32,000 nt of DNA from Candidatus Iainarchaeum sp. (GCA_030688545.1 JAUYHT010000001.1:53195-85194); one strand, 5' to 3'; shown: positions 6,671 through 32,000, counted from the first letter of the stretch. The notes: generated from the sequence alone by a model not told the origin. Numbers and translations: made by a program.

Positions 6671-7040
6671 ACTTTTCCCATCCTGCCTCTTTTTTGGGTA
6701 CGATTTGAGAAGCCGGCGTTTGGGGTGCCGCTTCCCTTGCACCTAATGAGACATCCAACATATCGTTGACCCGCTTAAAAAGCTTATGAGACCAAAGTTC
6801 CGAGGTCGTCGAACGGCTTCCATTGAAATCTTTTGTAAAAAACCCAAATAGGGCATTCATCCCATTCGGGCTGGGTGACAATCTCTTGTGGTGGGCCTTG
6901 AGATGGGCCGCAACACCTAATATTTGGAAATAAGCTGCAGAGGCATTGGCTCACCAAGCAGTTCTACCCACCCTTATTTTTTAGCGCTTGGTATCCGTAT
7001 CCCGTCCGGATTTCCTGGAATTATTCGGTCGTCAGTTTGA

Positions 7041-7092
7041 ATGCCCCGAGCGGGACATGGGCCTTCTATTACAACTTGCTCTGCGATTGAAA
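7041..7092. repeat. Direct repeat copy 1 (ATGCCCCGAGCGGGA plus about 40 bp similar to copy 3)
   Basis: 7041-7055 is identical to 8241-8255 and 9381-9395. The downstream CTATT..ACTTGC.CT.CGA.TGAAA aligns with 9406-9434. Confidence 0.85.
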
Positions 7093-7198
7093 CCCTTGGA
7101 TGATACCTTAAAGTATGTACCCAATATTTATTCTATATCCTTCACTCAGGCCAAGGTGGCAGAACTCCTTAAATGCATAAAGGGAAAACAATCATAGT

Positions 7199-8131
7199 AT
7201 GCCAAATGAAATAATCATAACTTGTTGCAAGGATCCTGATCTGGACGGTTTCGCCAGTGCAATCGGATATGCTGAGTTGTTGAGCAAAACTGGCACACCA
7301 ACAATACCTTGGATTTCCGGGAATGTCCATCCAGAGGTTCATTTTGTCATGAAAAAATTCGATTTCCCATACCCCGTAGAAACCACCAATCCTGAAAATT
7401 TTGCTCAGTTTGTGCTGGTCGATTCCAGCGAATTGAATGGATTGGATAAACGCATCAAACCAGAAAACGTGATAGAGATCATCGACCACCGAAAAATCAA
7501 TGATTCACATCTCTTTCCAAATGCCAAAATCCAAATCGAATTGGTAGGCTCCGCTGCCACCCTCATTACTGAAAAGTTCAAAGAAAAACAAGTTACTCCT
7601 TCCGCGAAGGCTGCTGCACTGTTGTATTCCGCGATTGTATCCAATACATTAAATTTCAAGGCAAAAGTAACTACTCAGCGTGATATGGCAATGGCTGAAT
7701 GGCTCCTCCAGCAATTTCAACTTCCAACAAATTATGTTCATGAAATGTTCGCGGCCAAATCAGACTTGTCAGGAAACAGGCTCCAAAATGGCATCCGGGG
7801 AGACTTCGCATGGTTCGCGCTTGGAAACAAAAAAATTGGAATTGCTCAACTCGAAATCGTTGGGGGAAGTGAACTGGCAAGTAGACGCTCTGACGAAATA
7901 ATAGAGGAATTGAGCCAATTAAAGGTTGAGAAAGGACTCGATCTTATTTTCATGTCCATTATTGAACTGGAAGAGGGATTCAACCTATTCATAACCAAAG
8001 ATCAAGAAGCTCAAAGAATACTAAGTGAATTATTTGATATCACGTTTAACGATACCATCGCAAAAAGAAATGGTCTTATCATGCGAAAAGAAATTGTACC
8101 ATTGTTAAAAGAGAAACTCCAAGCACACTGA
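7199..8131 (+). CDS. DHH/DHHA2 family phosphoesterase, family II inorganic pyrophosphatase homolog with substituted catalytic residues
   Basis: 310 aa, collinear with family II PPase: CCKDPDLDGFASAIGYA vs GHQNPDSDAIGS; VLVDSSE vs ILTDHNE; IIDHRKI vs VVDHHRV; ELVGSAATLI; IVSNTLNFKA vs ISDTLLLKS; C-terminal MRKEIVPLL vs SRKKQVVPQL. A TATA-like box lies about 24 bp upstream. Confidence 0.8.
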   Translation: MPNEIIITCCKDPDLDGFASAIGYAELLSKTGTPTIPWISGNVHPEVHFVMKKFDFPYPVETTNPENFAQFVLVDSSELNGLDKRIKPENVIEIIDHRKINDSHLFPNAKIQIELVGSAATLITEKFKEKQVTPSAKAAALLYSAIVSNTLNFKAKVTTQRDMAMAEWLLQQFQLPTNYVHEMFAAKSDLSGNRLQNGIRGDFAWFALGNKKIGIAQLEIVGGSELASRRSDEIIEELSQLKVEKGLDLIFMSIIELEEGFNLFITKDQEAQRILSELFDITFNDTIAKRNGLIMRKEIVPLLKEKLQAH

Positions 8132-8240
8132 TGCGGAAATATGACTGTGAAAGAATTTGATGCAAAAATTTGCTGAAGAAGTGGCAGATGTCGATCAAGC
8201 GACAGAATTATTCCAGAAGGGGCTCTTGCTCCACCACACT

Positions 8241-8268
8241 ATGCCCCGAGCGGGATTTGAACCCGCGA
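8241..8268 (-). repeat. Direct repeat copy 2: tRNA 3'-end fragment (T-arm plus 3' acceptor strand), not an intact tRNA
   Basis: The minus-sense reading is TCGCGGGTTCAAATCCCGCTCGGGGCA, i.e. T stem-loop GCGGG-TTCAAAT-CCCGC plus acceptor strand TCGGGGC plus discriminator A. No matching 5' acceptor strand, D-arm or anticodon arm follows. Confidence 0.8.
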
Positions 8269-8296
8269 TTTAGGCACCACAAAACTTCCTTCTTTA

Positions 8297-8345
8297 TCTG
8301 CCTAAATTTAGGCAGATGGATTTAAATTACTTCATCTGCCTAAAA
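8297..8345 (+). promoter_or_regulatory. Perfect 20-bp palindrome plus extra half-site around the TATA box of the Fic gene (operator-like)
   Basis: TCTGCCTAAATTTAGGCAGA at 8297-8316, TATA-like TTTAAATT at 8321-8328, a further half-site TCTGCCTAAA at 8335-8344 and TTTAGGCA at 8269-8276. ATG is at 8350. Confidence 0.6.
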
Positions 8346-8349
8346 TGGT

Positions 8350-9327
8350 ATGGCGCTTCGAATCAAAACTATTGCCGGAAAGCCCTATTATTATCTTCAT
8401 CTGAGCTATTTTATTCAAAGTAAGTCCAAAAGTTTCAGCAAGTACGTCGGAACCGAAAAACCCACGCAAAACAATCTCACAAAATTAGAAGGTTCATTCC
8501 GGGATGAAATCATCGAAAAACTGGGAAAACAACTCTTTGCGAATGAAAACATTTCAAAGGACGATGTCATCAAGACGTTCCTTTTCCGTGACGCATTCAA
8601 TGAGAAATACAAAAAACTCTCACCGGTTGAACGAAAAAATTTCGAAGTCAACCGCACCATCCTTTTTACTTTAACCACACTTACAACTGAAGACGTGGAC
8701 GTGGATTTGAACGACGTGATGGCAGCCTACCAAAAAGAGGCAAAACTGGATGCGCGTGAAACAATCAGCAAAAACATGCTCGAAGGGGTAGCTAAAATCA
8801 AAGAGTCGTGGAAGCTAGATGAAAAATCAATTCTATCGCTCCACAAAACAATTATGGCCAGTTTTGAAACGAAAAATCCGGGAACCTTTCGCCAAAGACA
8901 AGTTTACATTCACCGTCAAGATGAAAAAAATCCATTTGGAATAGAGATCGCACACCGTCCGCCTTCTTTTCTGGAAATACCAGAGCGCGTTGAGGAAATG
9001 GTTAAGTGGTATAATTCAAGTGGTCTTAATCCTATCGAAAAAGCGGCAGGCATTCATTTTGAATTGTATGTTATTCATCCATTTTTGGATGGGAATAAGC
9101 GCGTATCCCGGCTACTATTCAATAAAGCACTAATCGAAAATAGTTTTCCGTTAGTAAACATCTCCGAAAAGAAAGAGGATTATTTTCGCGCACTTATTCA
9201 GTCGGTTGAGGCCAAAAATGTAAAACCATTCACTGAGTTCGCCCTCAATGAGTTTTACCGGCAAGTCAGACAGTTCCTAAAAGCTAAAAAAATACCCAAA
9301 ACAAATATAGAACAAAAAGGGGAATGA
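8350..9327 (+). CDS. Fic/DOC family protein (Fic1) with deviant active-site motif
   Basis: 325 aa. The Fic core is HPFLDGNKRVSR versus canonical HxFx(D/E)GNGRxxR, a Gly to Lys change. It is an N-terminal paralog of the ORF at 29567-30499 (both start M.....K....YYYL). Confidence 0.85.
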   Translation: MALRIKTIAGKPYYYLHLSYFIQSKSKSFSKYVGTEKPTQNNLTKLEGSFRDEIIEKLGKQLFANENISKDDVIKTFLFRDAFNEKYKKLSPVERKNFEVNRTILFTLTTLTTEDVDVDLNDVMAAYQKEAKLDARETISKNMLEGVAKIKESWKLDEKSILSLHKTIMASFETKNPGTFRQRQVYIHRQDEKNPFGIEIAHRPPSFLEIPERVEEMVKWYNSSGLNPIEKAAGIHFELYVIHPFLDGNKRVSRLLFNKALIENSFPLVNISEKKEDYFRALIQSVEAKNVKPFTEFALNEFYRQVRQFLKAKKIPKTNIEQKGE

Positions 9328-9341
9328 AAAAAGTAGGATAA

Positions 9342-9378
9342 TTATCACCACCTGACTAGAAAAAGTAGGTGGTGATAA
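9342..9378. terminator. 12-bp perfect stem hairpin downstream of Fic1
   Basis: TTATCACCACCT (9342-9353) / AGGTGGTGATAA (9367-9378) with a 13-nt loop, flanked by A-runs. It ends 2 bp before repeat copy 3. Confidence 0.5.
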
Positions 9379-9380
9379 AA

Positions 9381-9434
9381 ATGCCCCGAGCGGGATTTGA
9401 ACTCACTATTCCCACTTGCCCTACGACTGAAAAA
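9381..9434. repeat. Direct repeat copy 3 (ATGCCCCGAGCGGGATTTGAAC plus about 30 bp similar to copy 1)
   Basis: 9381-9402 is identical to 8241-8262. The T-arm is broken after GAAC. Confidence 0.85.
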
Positions 9435-9700
9435 CGTGGCACGCAATCTCGTACACTATGCTAAACAATTGCAACCATTTCCCTCGAAAGCTAAAAATGA
9501 GGAAGTGGTGAATGGAGGTGCCCCAAAACAACCAGAGATCGAAGTCCCAGAAGATCCAGTCGAACGGTTAGTTATCGAATGCCTTTTCCGAAGGCCATGC
9601 GCTTCCTAAACAAGGGTAATCTTTCGGCTTAAAACCAAATATTTTGACAGGGCCCGTCGGAAGGGTAGTTTTTTATATCCCAAATCATTCCACTCTTTTC

Positions 9701-19848: not shown

Positions 19849-21060
19849 TTAAGCCATGGGAATAATCCTATCCAAGAAAGAATCCATATCGAAGGGAATA
19901 AGATCATCGTATCCTTGCCCCACTCCGAAAAACACCACGGGTTTCTTCAGCGCGTGCATGACTGAAATAACCCCTCCCCCCTTGGTGTCAGTGTCCAGTT
20001 TCGTGAGGATAAATCCGTCCACCCCGATAGCGGTGTCGAATGTTCTGGCTTGGGTCAATATGGCCTGTCCCGTGAAGCTTTCCCCCACGTACCATTTCAA
20101 ATGAGGTTGGATGACCCGCTGGATTTTTTTCAATTCTTCCAGGAGATTTTTGTTGGTGTCCTGCCTTCCCGCGCTGTCGATCAACACCACATCCGCTTTC
20201 TCCGCACGGGCGGCATTTACGGCATCATACGCTACGGCGGCCGGGTCAGCGCCATAGGTGTGCTTCACCAGGCGCACGCCTAATGCATTAGCATGGATCT
20301 GCAGTTGTTCGATGCTTCCCGCCCGAAAGGTGTCGGCGCTCGCGAGCACCACTTTTTTCCCTTGCTGTTGGAAGCGATGGGCCAGCTTAGCAATCGTAGT
20401 GGTCTTTCCCGCCCCATTCGGGCCCAATATAAGAATGATACAGGGGTGGTGAGAGGCCACGATGCTATCCACATCCACTTCCTCCACGTCAATGATCTGA
20501 TGCAGGGCGGCCTTGATTTCGGTGAGAATGACCTTTGTCGGGTTTTCCCGCGTGGAAATGGTTTTGTTGGAAAGGCGAGCGTGTAATTCTTCCACCAGAG
20601 CAGTAGCGGTCTCCAGTTCCACATCCGCTTCCAGCAGGGATAATTCGAATTCCTCGAGGAAAGCTTTCACGGTTTCCTCATCCAATGTGAGCGTTCCCGT
20701 GAGCATCCCTCCCATGCGGGAAATAATGCCCACTTTGGCCGTGAGGGGGCGTTCATCCCTCCCTTTCATCTCGGGAAGGGCCTCCGATTTCAGTTTAGAG
20801 GGTTGCGCGGGTTGGTCTTCCGATTCCGCGATGCGGGTGATTTCATCGGCCTGCATTACATTGTCAGGTATGGCGTCCATTACCTTGTCGGGAACAGGAC
20901 TTTCCTCCGGCATTTGAGGCAGATTCACTTCCGAATCATTCGCGTTTCCTGTTTCCATGTCTGATTCGGGTGGAGTGGGGTCAGCAGGCTTTTGGGTTTC
21001 GACGTTTCCCAGTACTTTTTGGGTGAACCCGGCGATCTTTTTTTTGAGCAGGTCGAACAT
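19849..21060 (-). CDS. ftsY: SRP receptor FtsY
   Basis: 403 aa with an acidic N-terminal region and an NG domain (GPNGAGKTTT, DTFRAGS, TKLD). Confidence 0.95.
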   Translation of the reverse strand: MFDLLKKKIAGFTQKVLGNVETQKPADPTPPESDMETGNANDSEVNLPQMPEESPVPDKVMDAIPDNVMQADEITRIAESEDQPAQPSKLKSEALPEMKGRDERPLTAKVGIISRMGGMLTGTLTLDEETVKAFLEEFELSLLEADVELETATALVEELHARLSNKTISTRENPTKVILTEIKAALHQIIDVEEVDVDSIVASHHPCIILILGPNGAGKTTTIAKLAHRFQQQGKKVVLASADTFRAGSIEQLQIHANALGVRLVKHTYGADPAAVAYDAVNAARAEKADVVLIDSAGRQDTNKNLLEELKKIQRVIQPHLKWYVGESFTGQAILTQARTFDTAIGVDGFILTKLDTDTKGGGVISVMHALKKPVVFFGVGQGYDDLIPFDMDSFLDRIIPMA

Positions 21061-21113
21061 GCGTTCCCATCCTTTTACAGATGAGAGGGTTACCCAGGAA
21101 AGGGGTTAAAACC

Positions 21114-21578
21114 CTATTTCTGGGCTTTCGTTTGGCGGGCTTGACGGATGGTCTGTAGGACCTGGTTGATTCCATTCAAATTGGTGGAAGTGGTTTGAAT
21201 ATCCTGGTCCACCACCTCCATCTCTTTTTCGAGCAATGCTTTTCTTTCCTCGAGTTCTTTCACCACGTCCTCCCGGGGGGCGTTCAGCACTACGTTCCCG
21301 GCGAGCATACGCTTGAATGTGTTGGGGGCTATTTTCCCTTCCACGAATACTCCGGCTCCCAGGGGCATGATGGACGTCATTTCCTTTTCATCCGATATTG
21401 CGTCCACGCTTTCGCGTACGCTCTGGTTCTCGAGGAGCATGTTTTCCGCCCCCTTGCGTCGGCGGATTAGTTCGTTCAGCTTTCGGCGTTCCGCCTGTTG
21501 GAGCTCCCGCACTTGCTGTACGCTCAGGGTGCGTTCCTCCTCGCGGGGCTTTTCATTCTTTTTTGTGGTTTCAACCAT
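21114..21578 (-). CDS. pfdA: Prefoldin alpha subunit
   Basis: 154 aa with coiled-coil / beta-hairpin / coiled-coil organisation (MPLGAGVFVEGKI central block). It sits in the conserved position between aIF6 and FtsY. Confidence 0.8.
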   Translation of the reverse strand: MVETTKKNEKPREEERTLSVQQVRELQQAERRKLNELIRRRKGAENMLLENQSVRESVDAISDEKEMTSIMPLGAGVFVEGKIAPNTFKRMLAGNVVLNAPREDVVKELEERKALLEKEMEVVDQDIQTTSTNLNGINQVLQTIRQARQTKAQK

Positions 21579-21633
21579 GCGTGTTCCTCCTTATCCATCA
21601 AAACCATTAAAATCCATCAAAACTTTGAAATGG

Positions 21634-22308
21634 TTACCTCATAATCAACCCCGGATTCAGCCCTTCGTCGATCCGGGCGAGTTCCGGGCCGCTGGTCAAT
21701 TCCCCCACCATAATCCCATGTTTATTCGCCAATATGGAATTGCCAATAAATGGATCCCCATAGTTGGCAGTGGTGCGCATCCCCGGGATTTTCAGCCAAT
21801 CCTCTATCTTCTGCATCTCCGCCGCCTCAGCTTTAGGATGAACCAAATAGCCTCGCTCATTTCCCACGAGGCAGGCCCCGGCCAGGTCGGATTTGGCGAT
21901 GGTGGAGCGGTGCAATACTTTCCCGAAGAAGGCTTCGATGGCCACCCGGTCTTTCTCAGGGATGAGATGACTGATCAGTCCGGCGTGGCGGTTGACATGC
22001 ACCAGGTTTCCCACTGCGCTGGTATCTCGCAAAACTAATGTGTCGATTCCCATGGCGCGCAGGGCATCCACTTCCTCTTCCTGCGTGCAGTTGGCAAGGG
22101 TGAATTTTTTTCCATATCCGCGAGATAATACTCCAATGAGGGGGCTGTCGGCGAGACGCGTGGGAAGGGTTTCAACTCCCAATGTTTCCGCAATACGTTT
22201 GCTCTCTTTCTGCTCCACGAATTCGGGGATTAAAGCGATTTCATCCGTGGTGCTGCAGAATATCCCCAGGTAGGGACTCCCGCGCAGGTTGATGGCTTTG
22301 ATGGTCAT
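21634..22308 (-). CDS. eif6: Translation initiation factor 6 (aIF6/eIF6)
   Basis: 224 aa with pentein repeats and recurring VGNL/IGN blocks. The start overlaps the L31e stop (ATGA). Confidence 0.9.
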   Translation of the reverse strand: MTIKAINLRGSPYLGIFCSTTDEIALIPEFVEQKESKRIAETLGVETLPTRLADSPLIGVLSRGYGKKFTLANCTQEEEVDALRAMGIDTLVLRDTSAVGNLVHVNRHAGLISHLIPEKDRVAIEAFFGKVLHRSTIAKSDLAGACLVGNERGYLVHPKAEAAEMQKIEDWLKIPGMRTTANYGDPFIGNSILANKHGIMVGELTSGPELARIDEGLNPGLIMR

Positions 22309-22823
22309 GGCTTTTCGGCCGGCGCGGTCGTTGGAGTGGCGGGTGGGGGGTTTGATTGGTCGGCCTTACCATCTGGAACCGTTGGGGCTTTCTCATCGGT
22401 TGTCTTAGGAGCGGTTTCCCCCTTCGTGGGGGCGTCTTTTTTGGTTGTTGTTTCCGTGGAAAGCGTCACTTTCGGGGTTGGTTTTTCCTTGGCATCCTTT
22501 TTCCCTTTGGCTTCGGCTTTCTTGGCTTCTTTGGCGGCGGCCTGCTCTTTCGCCACATATTCCTGGAGGTCTTTCCCTCCCTTCAGGAAGGCATACACCA
22601 TAGTTTCTTTCTTTTTTAGCACCACCTCAAGGCGGGGCACTTTCACATTCTTCCCGCGTGCCCAGATAGCATGATTAAGATCCGGGGACAATCGGATGTC
22701 TTTGGCTGGCGCCCGCGTGTGTTTGGTGATATAGTTCCGCACCGCAAAAACAACCTTGTTGGCATAACGTGTGCGGGGAATCCTAACCGCATTGTTCAAT
22801 CGGATGGTGTGGTCTTCTTTCAT
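22305..22823 (-). CDS. rpl31e: Ribosomal protein L31e with long Lys/Ala/Thr/Pro-rich C-terminal extension
   Basis: The N-terminal ~85 aa match L31e (IRLSPDLNHAIWARGKNVKVPRLEVVL). They are followed by ~85 aa of low-complexity KEAKKAEAKGKK...PPPATPTTAPAEKP. Confidence 0.9.
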   Translation of the reverse strand: MKEDHTIRLNNAVRIPRTRYANKVVFAVRNYITKHTRAPAKDIRLSPDLNHAIWARGKNVKVPRLEVVLKKKETMVYAFLKGGKDLQEYVAKEQAAAKEAKKAEAKGKKDAKEKPTPKVTLSTETTTKKDAPTKGETAPKTTDEKAPTVPDGKADQSNPPPATPTTAPAEKP

Positions 22824-22833
22824 GGGATCAGCC

Positions 22834-23121
22834 TCACGCGTATTTGTCCTTCTTCTTGTGCATGCGGTGGGTGTTCGTCTGGTGTTTCCCGGCGTTCCGC
22901 TTGGTGGCCTTGTATCCTTTCTTCCGGTTGTGTTCTTTCATTTTTTTCTTGAACATCTTTCCTAAATCGATGCTCCTCCAGTGCCGTTTGGCTTTGGTGT
23001 TGTAGATGCGCGCCCTCTTTTTTTGCATGGCGAAAACAGGGGCATTGGTCAAACCGGAGGTGATGCGTTGGCGCGTGACAATAATATGCTTCTTCATCTC
23101 CCGGTCTTTGTGGCTGCTCAT
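22834..23121 (-). CDS. rpl39e: Ribosomal protein L39e with basic C-terminal extension
   Basis: The core NAPVFAMQKKRARIYNTKAKRHWR aligns with the L39e RVPAWVMLKT....N.KRRHWR block. Synteny with L31e supports the call. About 40 extra Lys/His-rich residues follow at the C-terminus. Confidence 0.8.
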   Translation of the reverse strand: MSSHKDREMKKHIIVTRQRITSGLTNAPVFAMQKKRARIYNTKAKRHWRSIDLGKMFKKKMKEHNRKKGYKATKRNAGKHQTNTHRMHKKKDKYA

Positions 23122-23134
23122 ACATTTTCCTCGT

Positions 23135-23452
23135 TCATTTTCTCTTGATCGTGAATTCCTTCTTGGGTGGGGTAATTTGGGCGAGTAATCGTTTCACCTG
23201 GTCTTCGTCTATTTTACTTGGAAGTTTTCCCTGCCGGGCCGCCATGATCAGTGTGTGGGCCACTTGCAGGTATTTTTCCTTGTTCACCAGTCTCACGTTG
23301 TTCAGGCGCGTTTTGGCATCGGGCGTCAGCAGCGAGGCGAGCATTTGGTCCAACTCCCCTTCCATGCGGCGTTGGTTCTCTATTTCCTCGTAGCGTTTTT
23401 GGGCCCGCGCCCGCATCATCTCGTCCTGATTTTCCATTCCCTCCTCGCTCAT
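23135..23452 (-). CDS. PDCD5/TFAR19-like dsDNA-binding protein
   Basis: 105 aa. LLTPDAKTRLNNVRLVNKEKYLQV...QGKLPSKIDEDQVKRLLAQI matches the archaeal PDCD5-like family. It sits in the conserved position between S19e and L39e. Confidence 0.85.
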   Translation of the reverse strand: MSEEGMENQDEMMRARAQKRYEEIENQRRMEGELDQMLASLLTPDAKTRLNNVRLVNKEKYLQVAHTLIMAARQGKLPSKIDEDQVKRLLAQITPPKKEFTIKRK

Positions 23453-24039
23453 GTTTCCTCACTGGTCTTCTTCTTTTTGTCTTTGTATTTATCGGGATCC
23501 TCTTTCTTTCCTCGCTTGATGGCCGCGGTCACATCGCTTTCCGTCTTGGTGGCTTTGTGGAAGACGCGCTTCTTCTTGACTTTGGTCGCCAACCCCTCCA
23601 TCGCTGTACGGGAGGCCTGGTTGAGGAGTTTCTGCCCTTGGGGGGAGATGACGCGTCCCCCATTAGCTCCTTTTTGGACAAGGTGCGCGGTTTCCAGCTG
23701 CTGGAGGGCTAATCGAATGATCTTCCCCCCGGCCTTGCGGTGGCGATTGGGCTTCGTGCCCCTGTTTTTTCGTCCCCCATAATAGGTGCGCAGGCTCTCC
23801 GTCCCCACAGGTCCATCCTTGAAAACCCGGTATAGCACCGAGGCGCACCTCAAATACCACCAATCCGGGTCGGCTGGGGCGCGTTGGGCCTGTTGCCCAG
23901 TCTTCACGAAGGGGGCAAAGGGGGGAGATTGGACCATATTCTGCTCTTTGAAGGCGTGGGCGAGCTGGGACAGCAGGTCATTGGCTGGAACATCGTAGAC
24001 TCCCATTCTAATCCTCTCCTGGGTCATGCCTCTCGGCAC
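23449..24039 (-). CDS. rps19e: Ribosomal protein S19e with Lys-rich C-terminal tail
   Basis: The core starts at MGVYDVPANDLL (ATG 24006; alternative in-frame ATGs at 24027 and 24039), with WWYLRCASVLYRV and GGRKNRGTKP blocks. The tail is KRGKKEDPDKYKDKKKKTSEET. Confidence 0.9.
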   Translation of the reverse strand: MPRGMTQERIRMGVYDVPANDLLSQLAHAFKEQNMVQSPPFAPFVKTGQQAQRAPADPDWWYLRCASVLYRVFKDGPVGTESLRTYYGGRKNRGTKPNRHRKAGGKIIRLALQQLETAHLVQKGANGGRVISPQGQKLLNQASRTAMEGLATKVKKKRVFHKATKTESDVTAAIKRGKKEDPDKYKDKKKKTSEET

Positions 24040-24399
24040 ATGGGTTCAACAGCCTCATCTTGGTTTTGGAAACCAAAAATAGGCGTACTATTCTCATTCC
24101 CCTGGACAAGGTTTAAAAATAAGGGGGCCGGCCCCCTTTTGGGTCCAACAATGAAAGTTTTACCACTAGTGAAAATGGAGCGCGTGGAGCAAGTCAGCGC
24201 AGTAATTTTGCGGTCGAGGATAGTAGGAATCAAGTCCTTTCCTAGTTCTCCCTGATAGGGTTCCTCAGTCAAAGACATTCAAATCCCAGGGGGCAGAACA
24301 CCGAGGTATGTTCAGGATAGATGAAGCCGTTCGCCGTGTCATCGTATGGGGGGCCCTTTCGTTTCAAATCCGGGTCGGTTCAAAACATACCCTTTCGTT

Positions 24400-24744
24400 T
24401 CATGTGAGGGGGGATATTGCGAGATTGGATATCATCTTTCGTCGTGTGAGTTTTCCGCAGATGTGGCACACGAAATTCTTGGTCTTTCCTTTTACGCGAA
24501 TGGAAACGTTTTCTCCGTACACCCAATAATTTCCGCAACCCTTGCAGAAATGATTCCGCACCTCATCCGGAATGGCAACTCTGAAACGGGTGGATAATCC
24601 TTGAATAAGTTCCACGTAGCGCTTGCTTCGGGCCGGATTGGTATTCACTTCCTCCGCTGCCAACTCATCCAACCTAAACATGCGTTCCACCGCTATTTTC
24701 TGCTGGCCGGTGAGCGGGCGTACAAAACGGTTGGGTGTAGCCAT
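24400..24744 (-). CDS. rnp4: RNase P protein component 4 (Rpp21/Rpr2)
   Basis: 114 aa with an N-terminal helical region and a Zn ribbon CKGCG...(18 aa)...CHICG. Confidence 0.8.
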   Translation of the reverse strand: MATPNRFVRPLTGQQKIAVERMFRLDELAAEEVNTNPARSKRYVELIQGLSTRFRVAIPDEVRNHFCKGCGNYWVYGENVSIRVKGKTKNFVCHICGKLTRRKMISNLAISPLT

Positions 24745-24858
24745 ATATTCCTAACCCTGAGTGCTTGAAGTAATAATCTTTTGGGTTGCGGCAATCTCGG
24801 AGGGTTGGGTTCCTGGACACCGCGATATCGACTATTCCGAGATCGAAAAGTGGCTGTA

Positions 24859-24929
24859 TGCGGATGCCGGGAGTCGAACCCGGCCCCCGACCTTGGAAGG
24901 GTCGAATACTACCGATATACGACATCCGC
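24859..24929 (-). tRNA. tRNA-Gly (anticodon UCC)
   Basis: Hand-folded reverse complement: acceptor GCGGATG/CATCCGC; D stem GTAT/GTAT (two G-U pairs); anticodon stem CGACC/GGTCG with loop CT-TCC-AA; variable GGGG; T arm CCGGG-TTCGACT-CCCGG; discriminator A. No CCA is encoded and there is no intron. Confidence 0.85.
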
Positions 24930-25009
24930 AACCATAATGAATAATCGTACAAGAATGCTTATAAAAGCCCTATTGGCATCGGAATGAGATATGGAAAAAG
25001 AGCTTCGTA

Positions 25010-25072
25010 TTTTTTAAGAAAAAATTTTATTAAAAAATGGAAACTTTTTAGAAAAAAGTTTCATCAAAAAAC
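25010..25072. repeat. Second locus of the ~31-bp A/T palindromic unit (one intact, one decayed unit)
   Basis: 25041-25072 reads AAACTTTTTAGAAAAAAGTTTCATCAAAAAAC, almost identical to the units at 1230-1320. 25010-25040 is a degenerate copy. Confidence 0.85.
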
Positions 25073-25182
25073 CGCCTATTGTTTCACCTTACAGGGAGGC
25101 CATGCGTCACCCTTTCGAGTTGGCGAGCGATTAGGCGAGCGGGTCACCAAATTCATTCATCCAGTGCGTCCCGCGGATGAAA

Positions 25183-25479
25183 TCATTCCTCCTCGTCTTC
25201 GTCCTCGTCAAATTCGTCCAGGTGATACGTTCCCTCATCGATGCCAAGTTCCTTCAATTCCATTTCCGCTTGCTTTCGGGGAATATCTTTGCTGAAGTAG
25301 ACATCGTAGAGGGCCATGCTGGGCTCCCATCCGGCGGCGGTCAGCTTTTCCATGGCGTCGGCGATTGTATGCAATCTCTCTCTCAGTTCATCCCCTTTCG
25401 CCTTGACCATGGCGGCGTCTATTTTGTCTCCGAATTCCCATTCGGGTTTTCCGAAAAAGTAGATGGATAAGCTGGCCAT
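25183..25479 (-). CDS. Hypothetical small protein with acidic C-terminal tail
   Basis: 98-aa ORF with coherent composition, ending DEFDEDEDEEE. It is divergent from guaB. No family recognised. Confidence 0.5.
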   Translation of the reverse strand: MASLSIYFFGKPEWEFGDKIDAAMVKAKGDELRERLHTIADAMEKLTAAGWEPSMALYDVYFSKDIPRKQAEMELKELGIDEGTYHLDEFDEDEDEEE

Positions 25480-25590
25480 ATACTATCGCCTCCTCATTGG
25501 TTTTTTCACAAATGAAACGAATTGAAAGGCATAAAAACGTTCCCGTGGTGGGCCGCCGAGCCTCCGCCCAACCAACCTTTATAGGGGCGA

Positions 25591-27114
25591 ATGGGTACCA
25601 TCATCATGGCCCACCCCAAAATGGAATCCTTCTTCGCGCGCATGGAGGCCCTCGAGCTCGCCCTCGCTTTCGAGGATGTGCGCCTCGCCACCGCGTATTC
25701 GGACATTCGTCTGGAGGCGATTGAGACCAACTCCTTCTTCTCTAAGAACGTCCCCGTCAAGATTCCCATCATCAGCGCCGCCATGGATACCGTCACCGAT
25801 TCCCGCATGGCCATTGCCTTGGCCAAACTGGGGGGTTTGGGGATTATCCACCGAAATCTTTCGCCCGAACAGCAGGCTAAAGAAGTGGCCCGGGTGAAAA
25901 ATCATTTGAATGCGCGCATCCAGAACCCGGTGATGTTTCACCAGGATGATTCCATTCGGCAAGTCCTCCAGACTCGGGAAGAAAAGAATTTTCCCTTCCA
26001 TACGTTTCCAGTTCTCAATGCCCATGACGAATTGGTGGGGGTGGTGACGGAGAATGATTTCGATCTCATGGCCGACCCTGAACAACCTCTTTCCTCTATC
26101 ATGAGTGCCCAACCCGTGACGGCGCCGGTAACCTGTACCGTGGATGAGGCGTATCAGATCATGCTCACAGAGAAGAAGAAAGTCCTCCCCCTCGTGGATG
26201 AGAATGGAAAAGTAAAAGGGTTGTATGTGTTTCAGGACGTGAAGACCATCGTGAAGGGGGAACGTTATCGGTTCAACCTTGATTCCAATGGGCAGCTACG
26301 TGTGGGGGGCGCGGTGGGTACGGGGGAAAAAGAATTGGAGCGCGTGCGCGCATTGGTGAAAGAGAATGTGGATGTTGTAGTAATCGACACCGCCCACGGC
26401 CACTCGAAAGGGGTTCTAACCATGGTGAAAGCCATCAAGGGTGAATTCCCCTCCACCGATGTGGTGGCGGGGAACATCTCCGAACCCACGGGGGTGGATG
26501 ATTTGATCAAGGCCGGGGTGGACGGAATCAAGATAGGTCAGGGTCCGGGGAGTATTTGCACCACGCGCATCGTCGCGGGGATCGGGTGTCCACAGGTAAC
26601 CGCCATTTTCAACTGCGCCAAGGCCGCTCGAGGGAGCGGGGTTCCCATTTGTGGGGATGGGGGCATTACCTATTCGGGAGACATTACGGTGGCCCTGGCC
26701 GCCGGCGCCCACACCGTGATGGTGGGCAGTCTTCTCGCGGGCACGGCGGAGTCCCCGGGGGATATTACCTATGTGGATGGGAAGCCCGTGAAACGCATCC
26801 GGGGAATGGGAAGTTTGAGTGCGATGAAGGAAAGCAAAGCCTCGCGGGAAAGGTATCGTCAATCCCACGATTTCAAGAAATTGGTTCCGGAGGGAATCGA
26901 GGGAGTCGTGCCCTATCGGGGAAACGTGGAGGATTTGATGGTCCAGCATCTCGGGGGGTTGCGCGCGGGCATGGGCTATGTGGGCGCTTCTTCCATTCCG
27001 GAGCTCCATGAAAAGGCCTATTTCCGCCGCATCACCCATGCGGGGCAGAAGGAATCCCACCCCCATGATATCCATTTAATTACGGAAGCCCCCAACTACC
27101 ACCGGATCAGGTGA
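25591..27114 (+). CDS. guaB: IMP dehydrogenase with CBS subdomain
   Basis: 507 aa with an AAMDTVT block, a CBS pair, catalytic-loop GIKIGQGPGSICTTR, and GGITYSGD and GSLLAG blocks. Start could be a downstream in-frame ATG (MESFF... or MEALE...). Confidence 0.95.
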   Translation: MGTIIMAHPKMESFFARMEALELALAFEDVRLATAYSDIRLEAIETNSFFSKNVPVKIPIISAAMDTVTDSRMAIALAKLGGLGIIHRNLSPEQQAKEVARVKNHLNARIQNPVMFHQDDSIRQVLQTREEKNFPFHTFPVLNAHDELVGVVTENDFDLMADPEQPLSSIMSAQPVTAPVTCTVDEAYQIMLTEKKKVLPLVDENGKVKGLYVFQDVKTIVKGERYRFNLDSNGQLRVGGAVGTGEKELERVRALVKENVDVVVIDTAHGHSKGVLTMVKAIKGEFPSTDVVAGNISEPTGVDDLIKAGVDGIKIGQGPGSICTTRIVAGIGCPQVTAIFNCAKAARGSGVPICGDGGITYSGDITVALAAGAHTVMVGSLLAGTAESPGDITYVDGKPVKRIRGMGSLSAMKESKASRERYRQSHDFKKLVPEGIEGVVPYRGNVEDLMVQHLGGLRAGMGYVGASSIPELHEKAYFRRITHAGQKESHPHDIHLITEAPNYHRIR

Positions 27115-28683
<1,569 letters not shown>

Positions 28684-28704
28684 GAACTCAGAGTGTAATT
28701 TGGC

Positions 28705-28786
28705 CCGATGTAGCGACAGTAAGACGTTATGCTAATTCGAGTGCAGTAGCCTATTTTCTATCCTTAATCAGACATGACTAAAAACC
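28705..28786 (+). repeat. Cassette-boundary repeat R1
   Basis: Box1 is GATGTAGCGACAGTAAGACG (28707-28726). Box2 is GAGTGCAG (28739-28746), followed by TAGCCTATTTTC. Then comes GACATGACTAAAAA (28771-28784), shared with R2. Confidence 0.8.
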
Positions 28787-28806
28787 ATGCTTCCTGAGTC
28801 TCTTGT

Positions 28807-29466
28807 ATGTTGGATGTAGAATTAGACCTAAAAGCGAAAGATGGTCAACGCCGAAAAGCGACCAAAATGAATGCAGCTACTGCGCCCTATTTCGTGGACT
28901 TTTTAGGAAAGAGGATAATGGTCTATCCACATGTTTTTTACCCAGAAATTGATACTGAATTATTGGCAAAGTCTGCTAGAGTTAATCCATCGGATCGCGT
29001 GTTCGAACCTTTTGCTGGAACTGGTGCCATCGCTATTTTTTTGTCTAACCAATCTGCAGCGGTTGTTGCTACGGATGTAAATCCTGATGCCGTGAAAAAT
29101 ATTTCTGAAAATATTCGATTGCATGGTTTAGAGAAAAAGGCACGAATCGAATTAGCTAATATATTCCCCTCTAGTAATGAAAAATTTGATGTGATTGTTG
29201 CCAATCCTCCATATACGGATCATGAAGCAAAAAACATAGAAGAAAAGTCCATGTGGGATAAAAATCACGAAACTATAAAGAATTTCTTTCGTGATGCGAA
29301 AAAGTATTTGACTGCAAAAGGTAAAATTTATTGCTCGTGGTCTAATTTTGCTGATTTTGAGTTTTTGGAAAAACTTGCAAAAGAATCAGGTTATTCAATA
29401 AAATCAGTTAACGAAGTAGCAAAAGTTTGGCAGATTTATCGCGTTTATGAGATAGAGCCATTATAG
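28807..29466 (+). CDS. Class I SAM-dependent methyltransferase with NPPY motif (HemK/RsmC-like small MTase domain)
   Basis: 219 aa. Motif I is VFEPFAGTGAIA and motif IV is VIVANPPY. The substrate (DNA N6-A, protein Gln or rRNA) cannot be decided from sequence alone. Confidence 0.8.
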   Translation: MLDVELDLKAKDGQRRKATKMNAATAPYFVDFLGKRIMVYPHVFYPEIDTELLAKSARVNPSDRVFEPFAGTGAIAIFLSNQSAAVVATDVNPDAVKNISENIRLHGLEKKARIELANIFPSSNEKFDVIVANPPYTDHEAKNIEEKSMWDKNHETIKNFFRDAKKYLTAKGKIYCSWSNFADFEFLEKLAKESGYSIKSVNEVAKVWQIYRVYEIEPL

Positions 29467-29544
29467 GTGTGCGGCGTCCGTGAGATGCCTCGTCAGTTTG
29501 AGTGCAGTGCCTTTTTCAGATAAACTATCCGACATAACTAAAAA
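29466..29544 (+). repeat. Cassette-boundary repeat R2
   Basis: Box1 is the diverged form GTGCGGCGTCCGTGAGATG (29468-29486). Box2 is GAGTGCAG (29499-29506), followed by TGCCTTTTTC. Then comes GACATAACTAAAAA (29530-29543). Confidence 0.8.
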
Positions 29545-29566
29545 TTGGGAGGTCGACATGCACAAT

Positions 29567-30499
29567 TTAGTCGATAAGTGCTTTTTCGTATTGTTTCTTG
29601 AATCGTCTTACTAATCGAATCGCAAGTGCTCGCCCGTTGTTGGCGTAATTGCATCGTTCTAATGCGTTAATGTACGTTTGTCTTTCTTTGGTTTCAATAT
29701 CAATCATTCCATATCCATTTTGATACAGGATATAGTTCATCACGATTCGAGCCGTTCTTCCATTTCCATCCTGGAATGGGTGAATACGAACGAGTTTCCA
29801 GTGCGCCCATGCAGCTAATTCTAATGGATGTAATTTTTTCTTTAATTGGTCATAGTCCTTAAAGTAAAGTTTCATGTCAGTTGGAACCATATTTGGTGGG
29901 GTGAGTGCGAATTTGGACGCACGTAAGTAGTTTTCTTTCGTCTTGTATTTTCCTGCAATGTAAGGTTTTGTGTCGTTGAAGTACATTTCATGGATTTTAA
30001 ACAAAAAATCTTCGTCGAATTTTCCTTTGTATTCTTTGACAAATTGAAGCGTACGTTGGGCAGCCTTGGCTTCCAGTACATCGTCTAATGGCTTGTTTGG
30101 GGAAATATTTTCAGTTAAGAGAAGCGCAACTTCTTTGGGGGTGAGTGTGCTTCCTTCAATGGAGTTCGTGTTGTACACGAATGCCATGACAAAGTTCTGG
30201 TCAAACTGCTCCTGGATAGTGGAATTTTGAGCATTGTAACGTTTCCAAAACTCCTTGTTGATTCGATCAATCTCACTTATTTCATCGGGAGTCAAATAGT
30301 GATGACCCAAACTTTTTTCTCGCTCGGTTACCATTTCTTCTTCAAATTGAGACAATAAGATTTGTAGTTTCGTTTCGGAAGGTTGTTGTTTTCCAATGTA
30401 TTTTCGAATCTGCTTGCGTCGACCTTTGGCGATGGGAATGTTTTCAACCAAGTAATAATAGGTTTGCTCTCCCCGTTGGCGTTTGGTTAGATAGGCCAT
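29567..30499 (-). CDS. Fic family protein (Fic2), canonical AMPylation-type motif with N-terminal inhibitory-helix motif
   Basis: 310 aa. The core HPFQDGNGRTAR fits HxFx(D/E)GNGRxxR. TNSIEG fits the (S/T)xxxE(G/N) auto-inhibitory motif of class II Fic proteins. TATA-like CTTTTAAAG lies about 27 bp upstream. Confidence 0.9.
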   Translation of the reverse strand: MAYLTKRQRGEQTYYYLVENIPIAKGRRKQIRKYIGKQQPSETKLQILLSQFEEEMVTEREKSLGHHYLTPDEISEIDRINKEFWKRYNAQNSTIQEQFDQNFVMAFVYNTNSIEGSTLTPKEVALLLTENISPNKPLDDVLEAKAAQRTLQFVKEYKGKFDEDFLFKIHEMYFNDTKPYIAGKYKTKENYLRASKFALTPPNMVPTDMKLYFKDYDQLKKKLHPLELAAWAHWKLVRIHPFQDGNGRTARIVMNYILYQNGYGMIDIETKERQTYINALERCNYANNGRALAIRLVRRFKKQYEKALID

Positions 30500-30520
30500 A
30501 ATATGTGTTACTCACAAACA

Positions 30521-30556
30521 CTTTAAAAGGATTGAGGAACAACGGCTATTGAGGAA
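30521..30556 (-). promoter_or_regulatory. Fic2 promoter region: TATA-like box plus two 9-bp direct repeats
   Basis: The plus strand reads CTTTAAAAGG (30521-30530), then ATTGAGGAA at 30531-30539 and again at 30548-30556. Confidence 0.5.
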
Positions 30557-30599
30557 TACGGTTAGTGGATCCCGAATGTATAACGGCCGCCAAAATGGC

Positions 30600-31079
30600 T
30601 TACTCGACCATTTGCCACCCTTTCTTCTTGTATTTACCTAACTCAATGCTGTGCTCGGAATGATAATCTATTTCGAATTGGTGTTTATGGAGAAAGTAAA
30701 GGAGGAATACACTATTAGAAATATCCGGTAGATATCCGAGTTCGTCGATTATATTGAACATTTTAGCGGTTACTTTTGCTGAAAAGCTCTTATTCTCTTC
30801 GGTTATGGTCTGTATATACTCTATATCTTCCTTTAGTTTGTCGTATTTGCTGAAAAATCGATCCAAGGAATCAAAATGATCGTGGAGTTTGTTTTCATCG
30901 ATGCTTCTCAAAGAGAAAATCAATTTCAGTTTTGGAACCAAGAATACTCCGTACCATCCCATACTTCGTTCCCCCTGATTATGCTTGATTTCACCCGTAT
31001 ATAAATTTGCGTTCAGTAAACCGCCATGAAAATGCAACGACTGCAAAAAACTGAGCAATTCTGGTTCTGAAATAATCAT
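30600..31079 (-). CDS. Hypothetical protein (no recognisable family)
   Basis: 159-aa AT-rich ORF on the same strand as, and upstream of, Fic2. No motifs recognised. Confidence 0.55.
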   Translation of the reverse strand: MIISEPELLSFLQSLHFHGGLLNANLYTGEIKHNQGERSMGWYGVFLVPKLKLIFSLRSIDENKLHDHFDSLDRFFSKYDKLKEDIEYIQTITEENKSFSAKVTAKMFNIIDELGYLPDISNSVFLLYFLHKHQFEIDYHSEHSIELGKYKKKGWQMVE

Positions 31080-31301
31080 ATTATTTTTACTGTGTTATCG
31101 AGCATGACTTCTCCATTTTTCATGACCCGTAAACAATTGGCCAATTCGTATCGCTTTCATCCGCTGTCCATCCTTTTTTGTTCTAATTTTAAGATAGTTT
31201 AACATACTTAAAGATTCTTTAAGATTAGATTAAACGAGCGATTGTGGATAAGTTTACATTGTGTTTAGACACAATCAAAAAATCCGGCACTTGAACTACC
31301 T

Positions 31302-31419
31302 ATTCACCAACAAAAAAGGCCTACTGCGGGATTGCAAATCCCGCTAATGTTCCCTTAGTGCTGCCCGATAATGCGGGCATGCAGCGACCGTGAGACGGGG
31401 ACTGGGTAGAATGCAGATG
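31302..31419 (+). repeat. Cassette-boundary repeat R4 (long form, multi-hairpin)
   Basis: It is closed by AAAAAAGGCC (31302-31311) and GGTCCTTTTTT (31409-31419). Internal hairpins are GCGGGATT-GCA-AATCCCGC and TGCCCG-ATAATG-CGGGCA. Box1 is CATGCAGCGACCGTGAGACG (31368-31387) and box2 is GAATGCAG (31399-31406). Confidence 0.8.
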
Positions 31420-31465
31420 GTCCTTTTTTGTCATGTTTAAATACTTCCAATGATTCTTTTAGTTA

Positions 31466-31933
31466 ATGGAAAATGTTGCTCGTTGGCAGATAGTCGTTCT
31501 CCTTTTTATCACAGGAATAATGTGGTCTGGATGCATTGCGCCACCAAGTCCAAACAACTTAACAGTAATAGTTGAATCGAATAATGCCCCAGAATGTATC
31601 AAACTTTCTACTTATTCAAAAATGCTTCTTGCTTGTGAACTATGTACTGATTTTGTTGAAACGCCAGTTATTGAACTAAAAAATGAGTGTTCTGAGTTAC
31701 TTATTCTTCATGCGGGTTCTACTCCCCCACCAATGACTGGACTCAACGATTATTATGAGGGCTCTAAGCAAGGGGCTGATGGTACCACGCTCACTTATTC
31801 AGGCGAAAGTGCGTATATTTATGTTCATCAACTGGGTGCTTCTCAATTTTACTTCATTCAAAAATCAAATCCGCAGCAATCTTCTCCCAATGTCTATGAA
31901 ATAAAATATAGGATTGAAAATAAATCAAAATGA
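31466..31933 (+). CDS. Hypothetical secreted/lipoprotein-like protein
   Basis: 155 aa. The N-terminal hydrophobic segment ends in a lipobox-like IMWSGC. The rest is Cys-containing and AT-rich. No family recognised. Confidence 0.55.
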   Translation: MENVARWQIVVLLFITGIMWSGCIAPPSPNNLTVIVESNNAPECIKLSTYSKMLLACELCTDFVETPVIELKNECSELLILHAGSTPPPMTGLNDYYEGSKQGADGTTLTYSGESAYIYVHQLGASQFYFIQKSNPQQSSPNVYEIKYRIENKSK

Positions 31934-31954
31934 GAGTCGCTAAACTGGGGATAT

Positions 31955-32000
31955 CAGCCAGCCGGATTGCACTCTAACGCTGGATACGATGCAGCGACCG
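31955..32000 (+). repeat. Cassette-boundary repeat R5 (truncated by window end)
   Basis: CCAGCCGGATTGCACTCTAACGCTGG aligns with the R4 upstream arm. Box1 starts GATGCAGCGACCG at 31988 and runs off the window. Confidence 0.7.

Follow-up and report, generated by a model that had tools for sequence, protein, structure and literature searches.

Candidate att-type junctions of serially inserted gene modules downstream of purA in a Candidatus Iainarchaeum genome

Acinetobacter plasmids carry pdif (Xer) modules of one or two genes, often toxin-antitoxin pairs, whose short sites are used in trans by a recombinase of the host; these are 28-bp XerC/XerD sites in alternating inverted orientation. Cis-mobilizable elements (CIMEs) are an established class of bacterial modules that lack a recombinase, are flanked by att sites and become stacked by accretion (PMC5704250), and the usual trace of site-specific integration is a set of partial tRNA copies flanking the insert (PMC9897764). 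Integrons with canonical attC sites have been described from archaeal metagenome-assembled genomes (MAGs), in a report that does not mention Diapherotrites (PMC9668308). Here we analyse 32,000 nucleotides (nt) of Candidatus Iainarchaeum sp. (GCA_030688545.1, JAUYHT010000001.1:53195-85194), a DPANN archaeon belonging to Candidatus Diapherotrites, hereafter the window, in which copies of one repeat, R, punctuate three gene modules directly downstream of purA. A preliminary description of the locus had likened it to an integron array or a cluster of attC sites lacking integrases (CALIN), pointing to the archaeal reports, which do exist. Its cassette-array reading stands insofar as there is one fixed-polarity repeat for each small accessory module and the same layout recurs elsewhere; the attC features of integrons were not found. 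We lean towards the view that the R copies are att-type junctions, produced by serial site-specific insertion of modules without a recombinase, the recombinase being encoded elsewhere or the modules being decayed elements.

R is a repeat of about 50 nt, present in three full copies and one truncated copy (28707-28759, 29467-29517, 31377-31429 and 31988-32000) that all have the plus orientation, as was first noticed by eye and is borne out by pattern and profile searches (Table 1). The minus-strand pattern CTGCAYTC-N9-15-CRTCTYACKGWCGCYRC matched the 32-kb window only at 28710-28746, 29471-29507 and 31381-31416 and was absent from 100 shuffles. A hidden Markov model (HMM) of the three R cores recovered R1, R2 and R4 at E values of 4e-12 to 2e-10, and the 13-nt start of R5 (31988-32000) scored weakly. 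Neither the core HMM nor the degenerate pattern located a further copy in the other 28 kb of the window (none in 1-28600). Every module boundary therefore has a same-orientation R copy and the rest of the 32 kb has none, which supports the junction reading.

Box1, box2 and the T runs are all present as previously described, box2 reading GARTGCAG in R1, R2 and R4. R1 and R2 also have box3 in common, ATCMGACATRACTAAAAA (89% identity), and R4 (31329-36) and R5 (31966-73) share an upstream arm with GGATTGCA. The likeness of R1 to R2 thus lies to the right of the core and that of R4 to R5 to its left. The drop in GC content immediately after the purA stop codon is equally clear, from 0.53 over 20000-28683 to 0.37-0.40 in the three modules, the genome around the modules having a GC content of 0.50-0.53. 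R2 adjoins the stop codon of the methyltransferase and, on the opposite strand, lies 22 nt past that of Fic2.

The position of several copies close behind genes suggests a second explanation, in which R would be a non-mobile regulatory element, that is, a shared 3' untranslated region, terminator or small RNA combining its boxes with an oligo-T archaeal terminator and the promoter box of the next gene. T runs end R1, R2 and R4 (the corresponding position in R5 is past the contig end), R1, R2 and R5 start 0-21 nt after a plus-strand stop codon, and box3/TTTAAATA lies about 25 nt before the next ATG, which fits archaeal TATA boxes and leaderless mRNAs. We nevertheless consider this explanation unlikely. 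R is absent behind all of the window's approximately 30 core genes, contradicting the generic terminator that had been allowed for, and R4 lies between divergent genes and follows no plus-strand gene. Searches of 28600-32000 against Rfam 15 gave no match at E values up to 10, and the copies have no conserved fold and received no bacterial-type intrinsic-terminator call; the idea of a small-RNA family, also raised earlier, accordingly finds no structural support in Rfam, folds or covariation. A regulatory role would also leave unexplained the arm that R has in common with junctions in other genomes, set out below. Terminator or promoter function and a junction role could coexist.

The same architecture was found in other Diapherotrites genomes among 96 loci that we compared with the window (labels beginning with L). 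In three genomes (L006/L007, L092 and L093) a homologue of Fic2, the Fic/DOC-family protein of module 2, forms part of an array beginning with an intron-bearing tRNA-Tyr(GTA) gene behind a PAP2 gene. The last 11 nt of this tRNA, GGGAGGCGGGA, recur in the orientation of the tRNA, with six copies in L006/L007, two in L092 and five in L093, and delimit modules of one to three genes, so that the end of each module is a copy of the tRNA 3' end. The content of the site differs between the three genomes, the cargo comprising Fic, a ParE/YafQ-like pair, a DEAD helicase, a RuBisCO-like protein, proteins of unknown function and, in one module of L093, an rve-family (DDE) gene; these arrays yielded no recombinase of the tyrosine or serine type. 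At L009, Fic is flanked on one side by the 3' end of a different intron-bearing tRNA and on the other by a 22-nt duplicate of that end. Full-text literature searches found nothing published on arrays of this kind in Diapherotrites or DPANN archaea. The arrays occupy positions 1-8500 of L006/L007, 3600-5040 of L092 and 1-8200 of L093, and their tRNA-Tyr(GTA) genes have introns of ~34 to ~200 nt and an odd T loop, TGCAA(A/C)T.

A conserved arm links these arrays to R. At six of the ten internal array junctions the motif T(T/C)GCAC stands exactly 15 nt upstream of the core, beside unrelated cargo, within an arm that reads (C)GG(C)GGGAYTTGCAC(C/T) in the arrays of the other genomes. R5 has the same build, TTGCAC-N15-core, and at equal distance from the core its arm resembles that of L092 (CGGA-TTGCACTCTA; p=0.0005) and that of L006 (p=0.01). 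In R4 the segment GCGGGATTGCAAATCCCGC, which is farther upstream, resembles both the family arm and the repeat of a second island in the window, island 1 (p ~0.02 each). Four of the six best window matches of an arm HMM built from the other genomes only fell in R4, copies 2 and 3 of the island 1 repeat, and R5; R4 ranked first, and the matches were individually weak (E 0.2-1.9). We infer from the sequence that the upstream arm of R4 and R5 around GGATTGCA is the conserved right-end arm of the junction family; the R core is a different one. The R4 and R5 arms look like tRNA T arms (p 0.02-0.04), and the tRNA-3' HMM did not match them. When box2 was taken on the minus strand as the arm of the Fic2 module, it had only 7 nt in common with the L092 arm (p 0.3). 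A core YRGCGWC common to R and the repeats of L009, L010 and island 1 was also considered; by our own estimate its 9/12 match is expected about once by chance, and it was not used.

Island 1 lies upstream in the same window and has the same organisation. Its repeat occurs in three same-orientation copies, against 0.11 expected, which bound the gene for a DHH/DHHA2 pyrophosphatase (7199-8131) and a first Fic gene, Fic1 (8350-9327), both identified with Pfam and NCBIfam. In reverse complement, the repeat reads as a tRNA T arm with the 3' strand of the acceptor stem. Copy 2 agrees with the tRNA 3' end of a relative at 22/26 positions (p<0.001) and has a weak tRNA score in Rfam, and copies 1 and 3 are 75% alike over 60 nt. 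No intact tRNA was found in the island. On its sequence we read the island 1 repeat as an unmistakable tRNA 3' end, the classic mark of integration at a tRNA gene.

The purA-side array and its relatives come closest to CIMEs and to archaeal tRNA-integrated elements (PMC5704250; PMC9897764, Fig. 3), with which they have in common direct repeats around each unit (in the tRNA-associated arrays, of the target 3' end), tandem stacking in one orientation, the lack of an integrase, foreign composition and toxin-type cargo. Each unit is bounded by a same-orientation site at R1, R2, R4 and R5. The sites are tRNA 3' ends in island 1, L006, L009, L092 and L093, while the R core matches nothing, and the units are free of recombination genes in the modules of the window and in most modules of the related arrays, the rve gene of L093 being the exception. 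In contrast to CIMEs, the units described here are far smaller (0.65-3.7 kb, 1-3 genes) and bear a conserved arm of ~30 nt at a fixed 15 nt from the core, recurring across several genomes; the core on the purA side is not recognisable as part of a tRNA or other gene, and no parental element with an integrase was seen.

Under the serial-insertion reading, the modules would have been inserted one by one by site-specific recombination at a site just downstream of purA, with the target core duplicated at the module boundary, in one orientation, at every insertion. The presence of one repeat per module, whatever the orientation of the genes, would follow because each insertion leaves a core copy behind. 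The modules, namely the methyltransferase, Fic2 with a 120-aa protein, and a lipoprotein-like open reading frame (ORF), have their own promoters and no recombinase, and would either be moved by a recombinase encoded elsewhere or be the remains of larger elements. Box3 to the right of the core in R1 and R2, and the arm to its left in R4 and R5, may represent the ends of related modules; the likeness between R copies tracks module ends, as expected if related modules bring their own ends. Like pdif modules, these would be discrete small modules bounded by short recombination sites and served by a recombinase acting in trans; unlike pdif sites, the sites here are direct, ~45-50 nt long and composite (arm-N15-core).

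Several observations weigh against this reading. The R core has no true match in the genome, metagenome and viral collections or in the 96 loci, and with no equivalent of it known beyond this population, the view that it began as a target site is an assumption. R copies are 70-85% alike over ~50 nt and, unlike those of island 1, have no sharp identical core. Fic2 is transcribed against the polarity of the repeats, whereas Fic is co-oriented in every tRNA-Tyr array. R1 and R2 are without the arm, in the case of R1 because purA ends 21 nt ahead of it, and the likeness of the R4 arm is marginal (p ~0.02-0.04, from several tests). A candidate recombinase was found nowhere among the sequences examined. 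The only other assemblies of the purA locus are 100% identical, and the relatives reach no more than 55% purA identity, which leaves no material in which an empty site, excision product or polymorphism could show.

A broader proposal, which we offer tentatively and hold to be rather doubtful, is that a dedicated cassette system distinct from integrons exists in Diapherotrites and perhaps in further DPANN archaea. Its modules of one to three genes would end in the arm GGAYTTGCAC, a 15-nt spacer and a core copied from the target, and a trans-acting recombinase would move them into tRNA 3' ends and a few sites such as that behind purA, building variable arrays that spread Fic, toxin and accessory genes across lineages that differ in GC content. 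Little is known of how genes are gained and traded among DPANN archaea, whose genomes are tiny and which rely on hosts. If the arrays are active, they would be a compact platform for gene capture, with a role like that of integrons or pdif modules and built on sites resembling tRNA ends; in that case arm-N15-core would be a signature by which accessory genes and the recombinase could be located in thousands of MAGs. If they are relics, the arrays would mark integration hot spots and would account for the low-GC islands of these MAGs and for breaks in their contigs.

The layout alone would suit a canonical integron array of CALIN type, in which R would be an attC site recombined by IntI through folded hairpins of single-stranded DNA. 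The array resembles integrons and CALINs (PMC9668308) in having one site of fixed polarity per small cassette, accessory cargo that includes a toxin-type gene, and no integrase nearby, and R4, an imperfect palindrome of 120 nt, folds well. The other copies do not bear this out. Fold z-scores for single-stranded DNA were -4.15 for R4, +0.52 for R1, +0.59 for R2 and -0.67 for the partial R5, the last three folding no better than shuffles, and RNA folds agreed. The RNAalifold consensus of the three cores reached only -3.78 kcal/mol with a covariation term of -0.11; the copies have no conserved bulged hairpin in common, the feature for which the preliminary description had proposed a search. As that description had already reported, the canonical cores are missing: a regular-expression search of both strands of 28600-32000 found no RYYYAAC...GTTRRRY pair 40-140 nt apart, single boxes all lying outside the repeats. 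R1 and R2 are entirely without a left arm, no R''/R' boxes are present, tRNA 3' ends form the basis of the sites in the related arrays, and the genes have promoter-like boxes of their own and mixed orientation. Taken together, this makes a canonical integron array very improbable.

The strong fold of R4 bears on another possibility, that R4 is a complete miniature inverted-repeat transposable element (MITE) or other small transposable element with terminal inverted repeats, R1, R2 and R5 being solo ends or fragments. The outer arms of R4, AAAAAAGGCCTACTGC and GCAGATGGTCCTTTTTT, pair with each other as inverted termini of 16-17 nt, and the fold is strong on both strands. R4 on its own therefore fits the MITE alternative named in the preliminary description, but R1, R2 and R5 do not, since the left terminus is missing in three of the four copies. 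No target-site duplication is evident around R4, and no transposase was found in the larger ORFs of the window that were scanned. The copies lie within 3.3 kb, exactly at module boundaries and in one orientation, and none was found in the other 28 kb or in the scanned collections. We regard a MITE as improbable.

An assembly break at R5 would suit a dispersed repeat of this kind, and it also accords with the junction reading, as assemblies break inside R5 (Logan; NCBI probably). The Logan contig covering 25043-32000 (6,958 bp) stops exactly at window base 32000, and judging from locus-tag numbering the 85,194-bp NCBI contig probably stops there too; R5 is thus cut by an assembly break and not by the window edge alone. 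DNA spanning purA, R1 and the methyltransferase is 100% identical in a second MAG (GCA_034375545.1) and in two Logan assemblies. Because this junction is present in both sample sets, each with an NCBI MAG contig and a Logan contig, it is no assembly chimera.

Other identities for the repeats were rejected. The R4 hairpin GGGATTGCAAATCCC resembles a Cys/Ala anticodon arm or a T arm, as might be expected of a tRNA or split tRNA; ARAGORN with introns allowed returned nothing at normal stringency and noise at low stringency, and neither the Rfam tRNA model nor the tRNA-3' HMM matched. Variable positions of box1 are spread about evenly over the three codon phases (by eye), with no 3-nt period that would indicate a coding remnant, and on inspection the boxes mismatch those of C/D-box and H/ACA RNAs and of k-turns. 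The RTGCAG motifs of box1 and box2 are 32-34 nt apart in R1, R2 and R4, giving core-like motifs an apparent period of ~33 nt; in L093 GGCGGGA...GGCGGGA is spaced 33 nt. Box1 is flanked on each side by inverted TGCAC motifs about 15 nt off.

In 78 purA relatives (<=55% purA identity), the DNA downstream of purA contains neither R nor any of the module genes, the methyltransferase and Fic included. The degenerate box1-box2 pattern had a sole match in the genome contigs, a chance occurrence inside a 937-aa Treponema ORF, and none in the viral and metagenome collections. In the distant relatives L014, L019 and L088 a convergent intron-bearing tRNA follows purA after 113-750 nt, with differing intervening DNA, and L088 has an additional 3' fragment of the convergent tRNA directly after the purA stop codon. 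Given this arrangement, a tRNA target beyond base 32000 of the window is plausible. The regions concerned are 1880-2770 in L014, 7500-8200 in L019 and 6716-7001 in L088; by eye the anticodon loop of the tRNAs, TTGGTAA, is that of Thr-GGT, and ARAGORN assigns them to Phe.

Table 1. Repeats, island modules and neighbouring features in the window (positions counted from its first nucleotide)
Feature	Position	Strand	Details
Island 1 (sister island)	7040..9439	+	Repeats AATGCCCCGAGCGGGA(TTTGAAC) at 7041, 8241 and 9381; GC 0.40-0.41
purA	27124..28683	+	Adenylosuccinate synthase, 519 aa; Pfam PF00709, E 6e-130; last core gene, left island border
R1	28705..28786	+	Box1 28707-28726; box2 28739-28746; T run 28753-28756; box3 ATCAGACATGACTAAAAA 28767-28784
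Module 1	28807..29466	+	Class I S-adenosylmethionine-dependent methyltransferase (HemK/MTS-like, NPPY), GC 0.37; Pfam, NCBIfam
R2	29466..29545	+	Diverged box1 29468-29487; box2 29500-29507; T run 29512-29516; box3 29527-29544
Module 2a, Fic2	29567..30499	-	Fic/DOC family, 310 aa; Pfam PF02661, E 2e-24
Fic2 promoter region	30500..30560	-	Operator-like repeats around a TTTTAAA box: TTCCTCAAT x2 ... TTTTAAAG ... TGAGTAAC
Module 2b	30600..30962	-	120-aa protein; mechanical ORF extends to 31079 (159 aa)
R4 (longest copy)	31310..31432	+	A run; GGCCTACT 31318-25; T-arm-like hairpin GCGGGATTGCAAATCCCGC 31326-44; second hairpin 31362-79; box1 31378-97; box2 31409-16; T run 31424-29
Module 3	31466..31933	+	155-aa protein, N-terminal hydrophobic segment and Cys (lipoprotein-like), GC 0.40; translation
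R5 (truncated)	31955..32000	+	Arm GCCGGATTGCAC 31961-72; 15-nt spacer; GATGCAGCGACCG 31988-32000

The earlier calls of purA, the NPPY methyltransferase, Fic and the ORF with a signal and Cys hold in Pfam, NCBIfam and translation. The ORF given as 159 aa is actually 120 aa long, according to 25 homologues and the NCBI call. No recombinase or transposase domain was detected with Pfam in the module ORFs or in the larger ORFs of the window that were scanned, in agreement with the lack of a recombinase gene reported before.

The methyltransferase of module 1 has only 23 homologues, the best 63% identical, which are scattered in DPANN archaea; in one Micrarchaeota genome the homologue sits amid core genes. 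Fic2 has >300 homologue clusters at 57-74% identity, and those with a named source belong to Diapherotrites or an unclassified archaeon. In six other genomes the Fic2 homologues have unrelated neighbourhoods, and no Fic2 relatives were found in viral contigs. Fic-bearing loci sampled from two other Diapherotrites genomes have a GC content of 0.33-0.41; set against the 0.37-0.40 of the modules, this makes low-GC Diapherotrites the likely donors.

When the upstream region of Fic2 was aligned with those of six other Fic genes, homology began about 65 nt before the ATG, which in the tRNA arrays is directly after the junction core. Promoters of the Fic family keep a direct pair of TTAC(T/A)C(A) boxes, a TTTTTAAA box and, some 20 nt ahead of the ATG, a TGAGTAA box in inverted orientation. 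The regions compared included 30500-30560 (minus strand) of the window, 5938-6000 of L006, 3939-4000 of both L092 and L093, and 3936-4000 of L095. The conservation of these boxes suggests autoregulation.

The 120-aa protein of module 2 has its homologues (105-154 aa, most 115-124; 57-70% identity) in Diapherotrites, Micrarchaeota and Nanoarchaeota. Its AF2/AlphaFold model has a predicted local distance difference test score (pLDDT) of 91, and neither a fold match in the PDB nor a match in Pfam, NCBIfam or PHROG was found. One homologue of this protein and one Fic homologue are both listed on contigs of 15,501 bp, which may be one and the same. The module 3 protein forms a singleton cluster with no family match in Pfam, NCBIfam or PHROG.

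Directly after R2 (29545-29615, plus strand), a GGAGGT box is followed at 4 nt by the ATG of an 18-codon ORF (MHNLVDKCFFVLFLESSY) antisense to the 3' end of Fic2, possibly encoding a small peptide or marking an antisense transcript. PurA extends ~70-100 residues beyond the 416-position Pfam model that it spans, and the relatives found are equally long. Elsewhere in the window (4181-6742, minus strand), a RadA/Rad51 recombinase gene is split by an intein with a LAGLIDADG homing-endonuclease domain, for a total of 853 aa.

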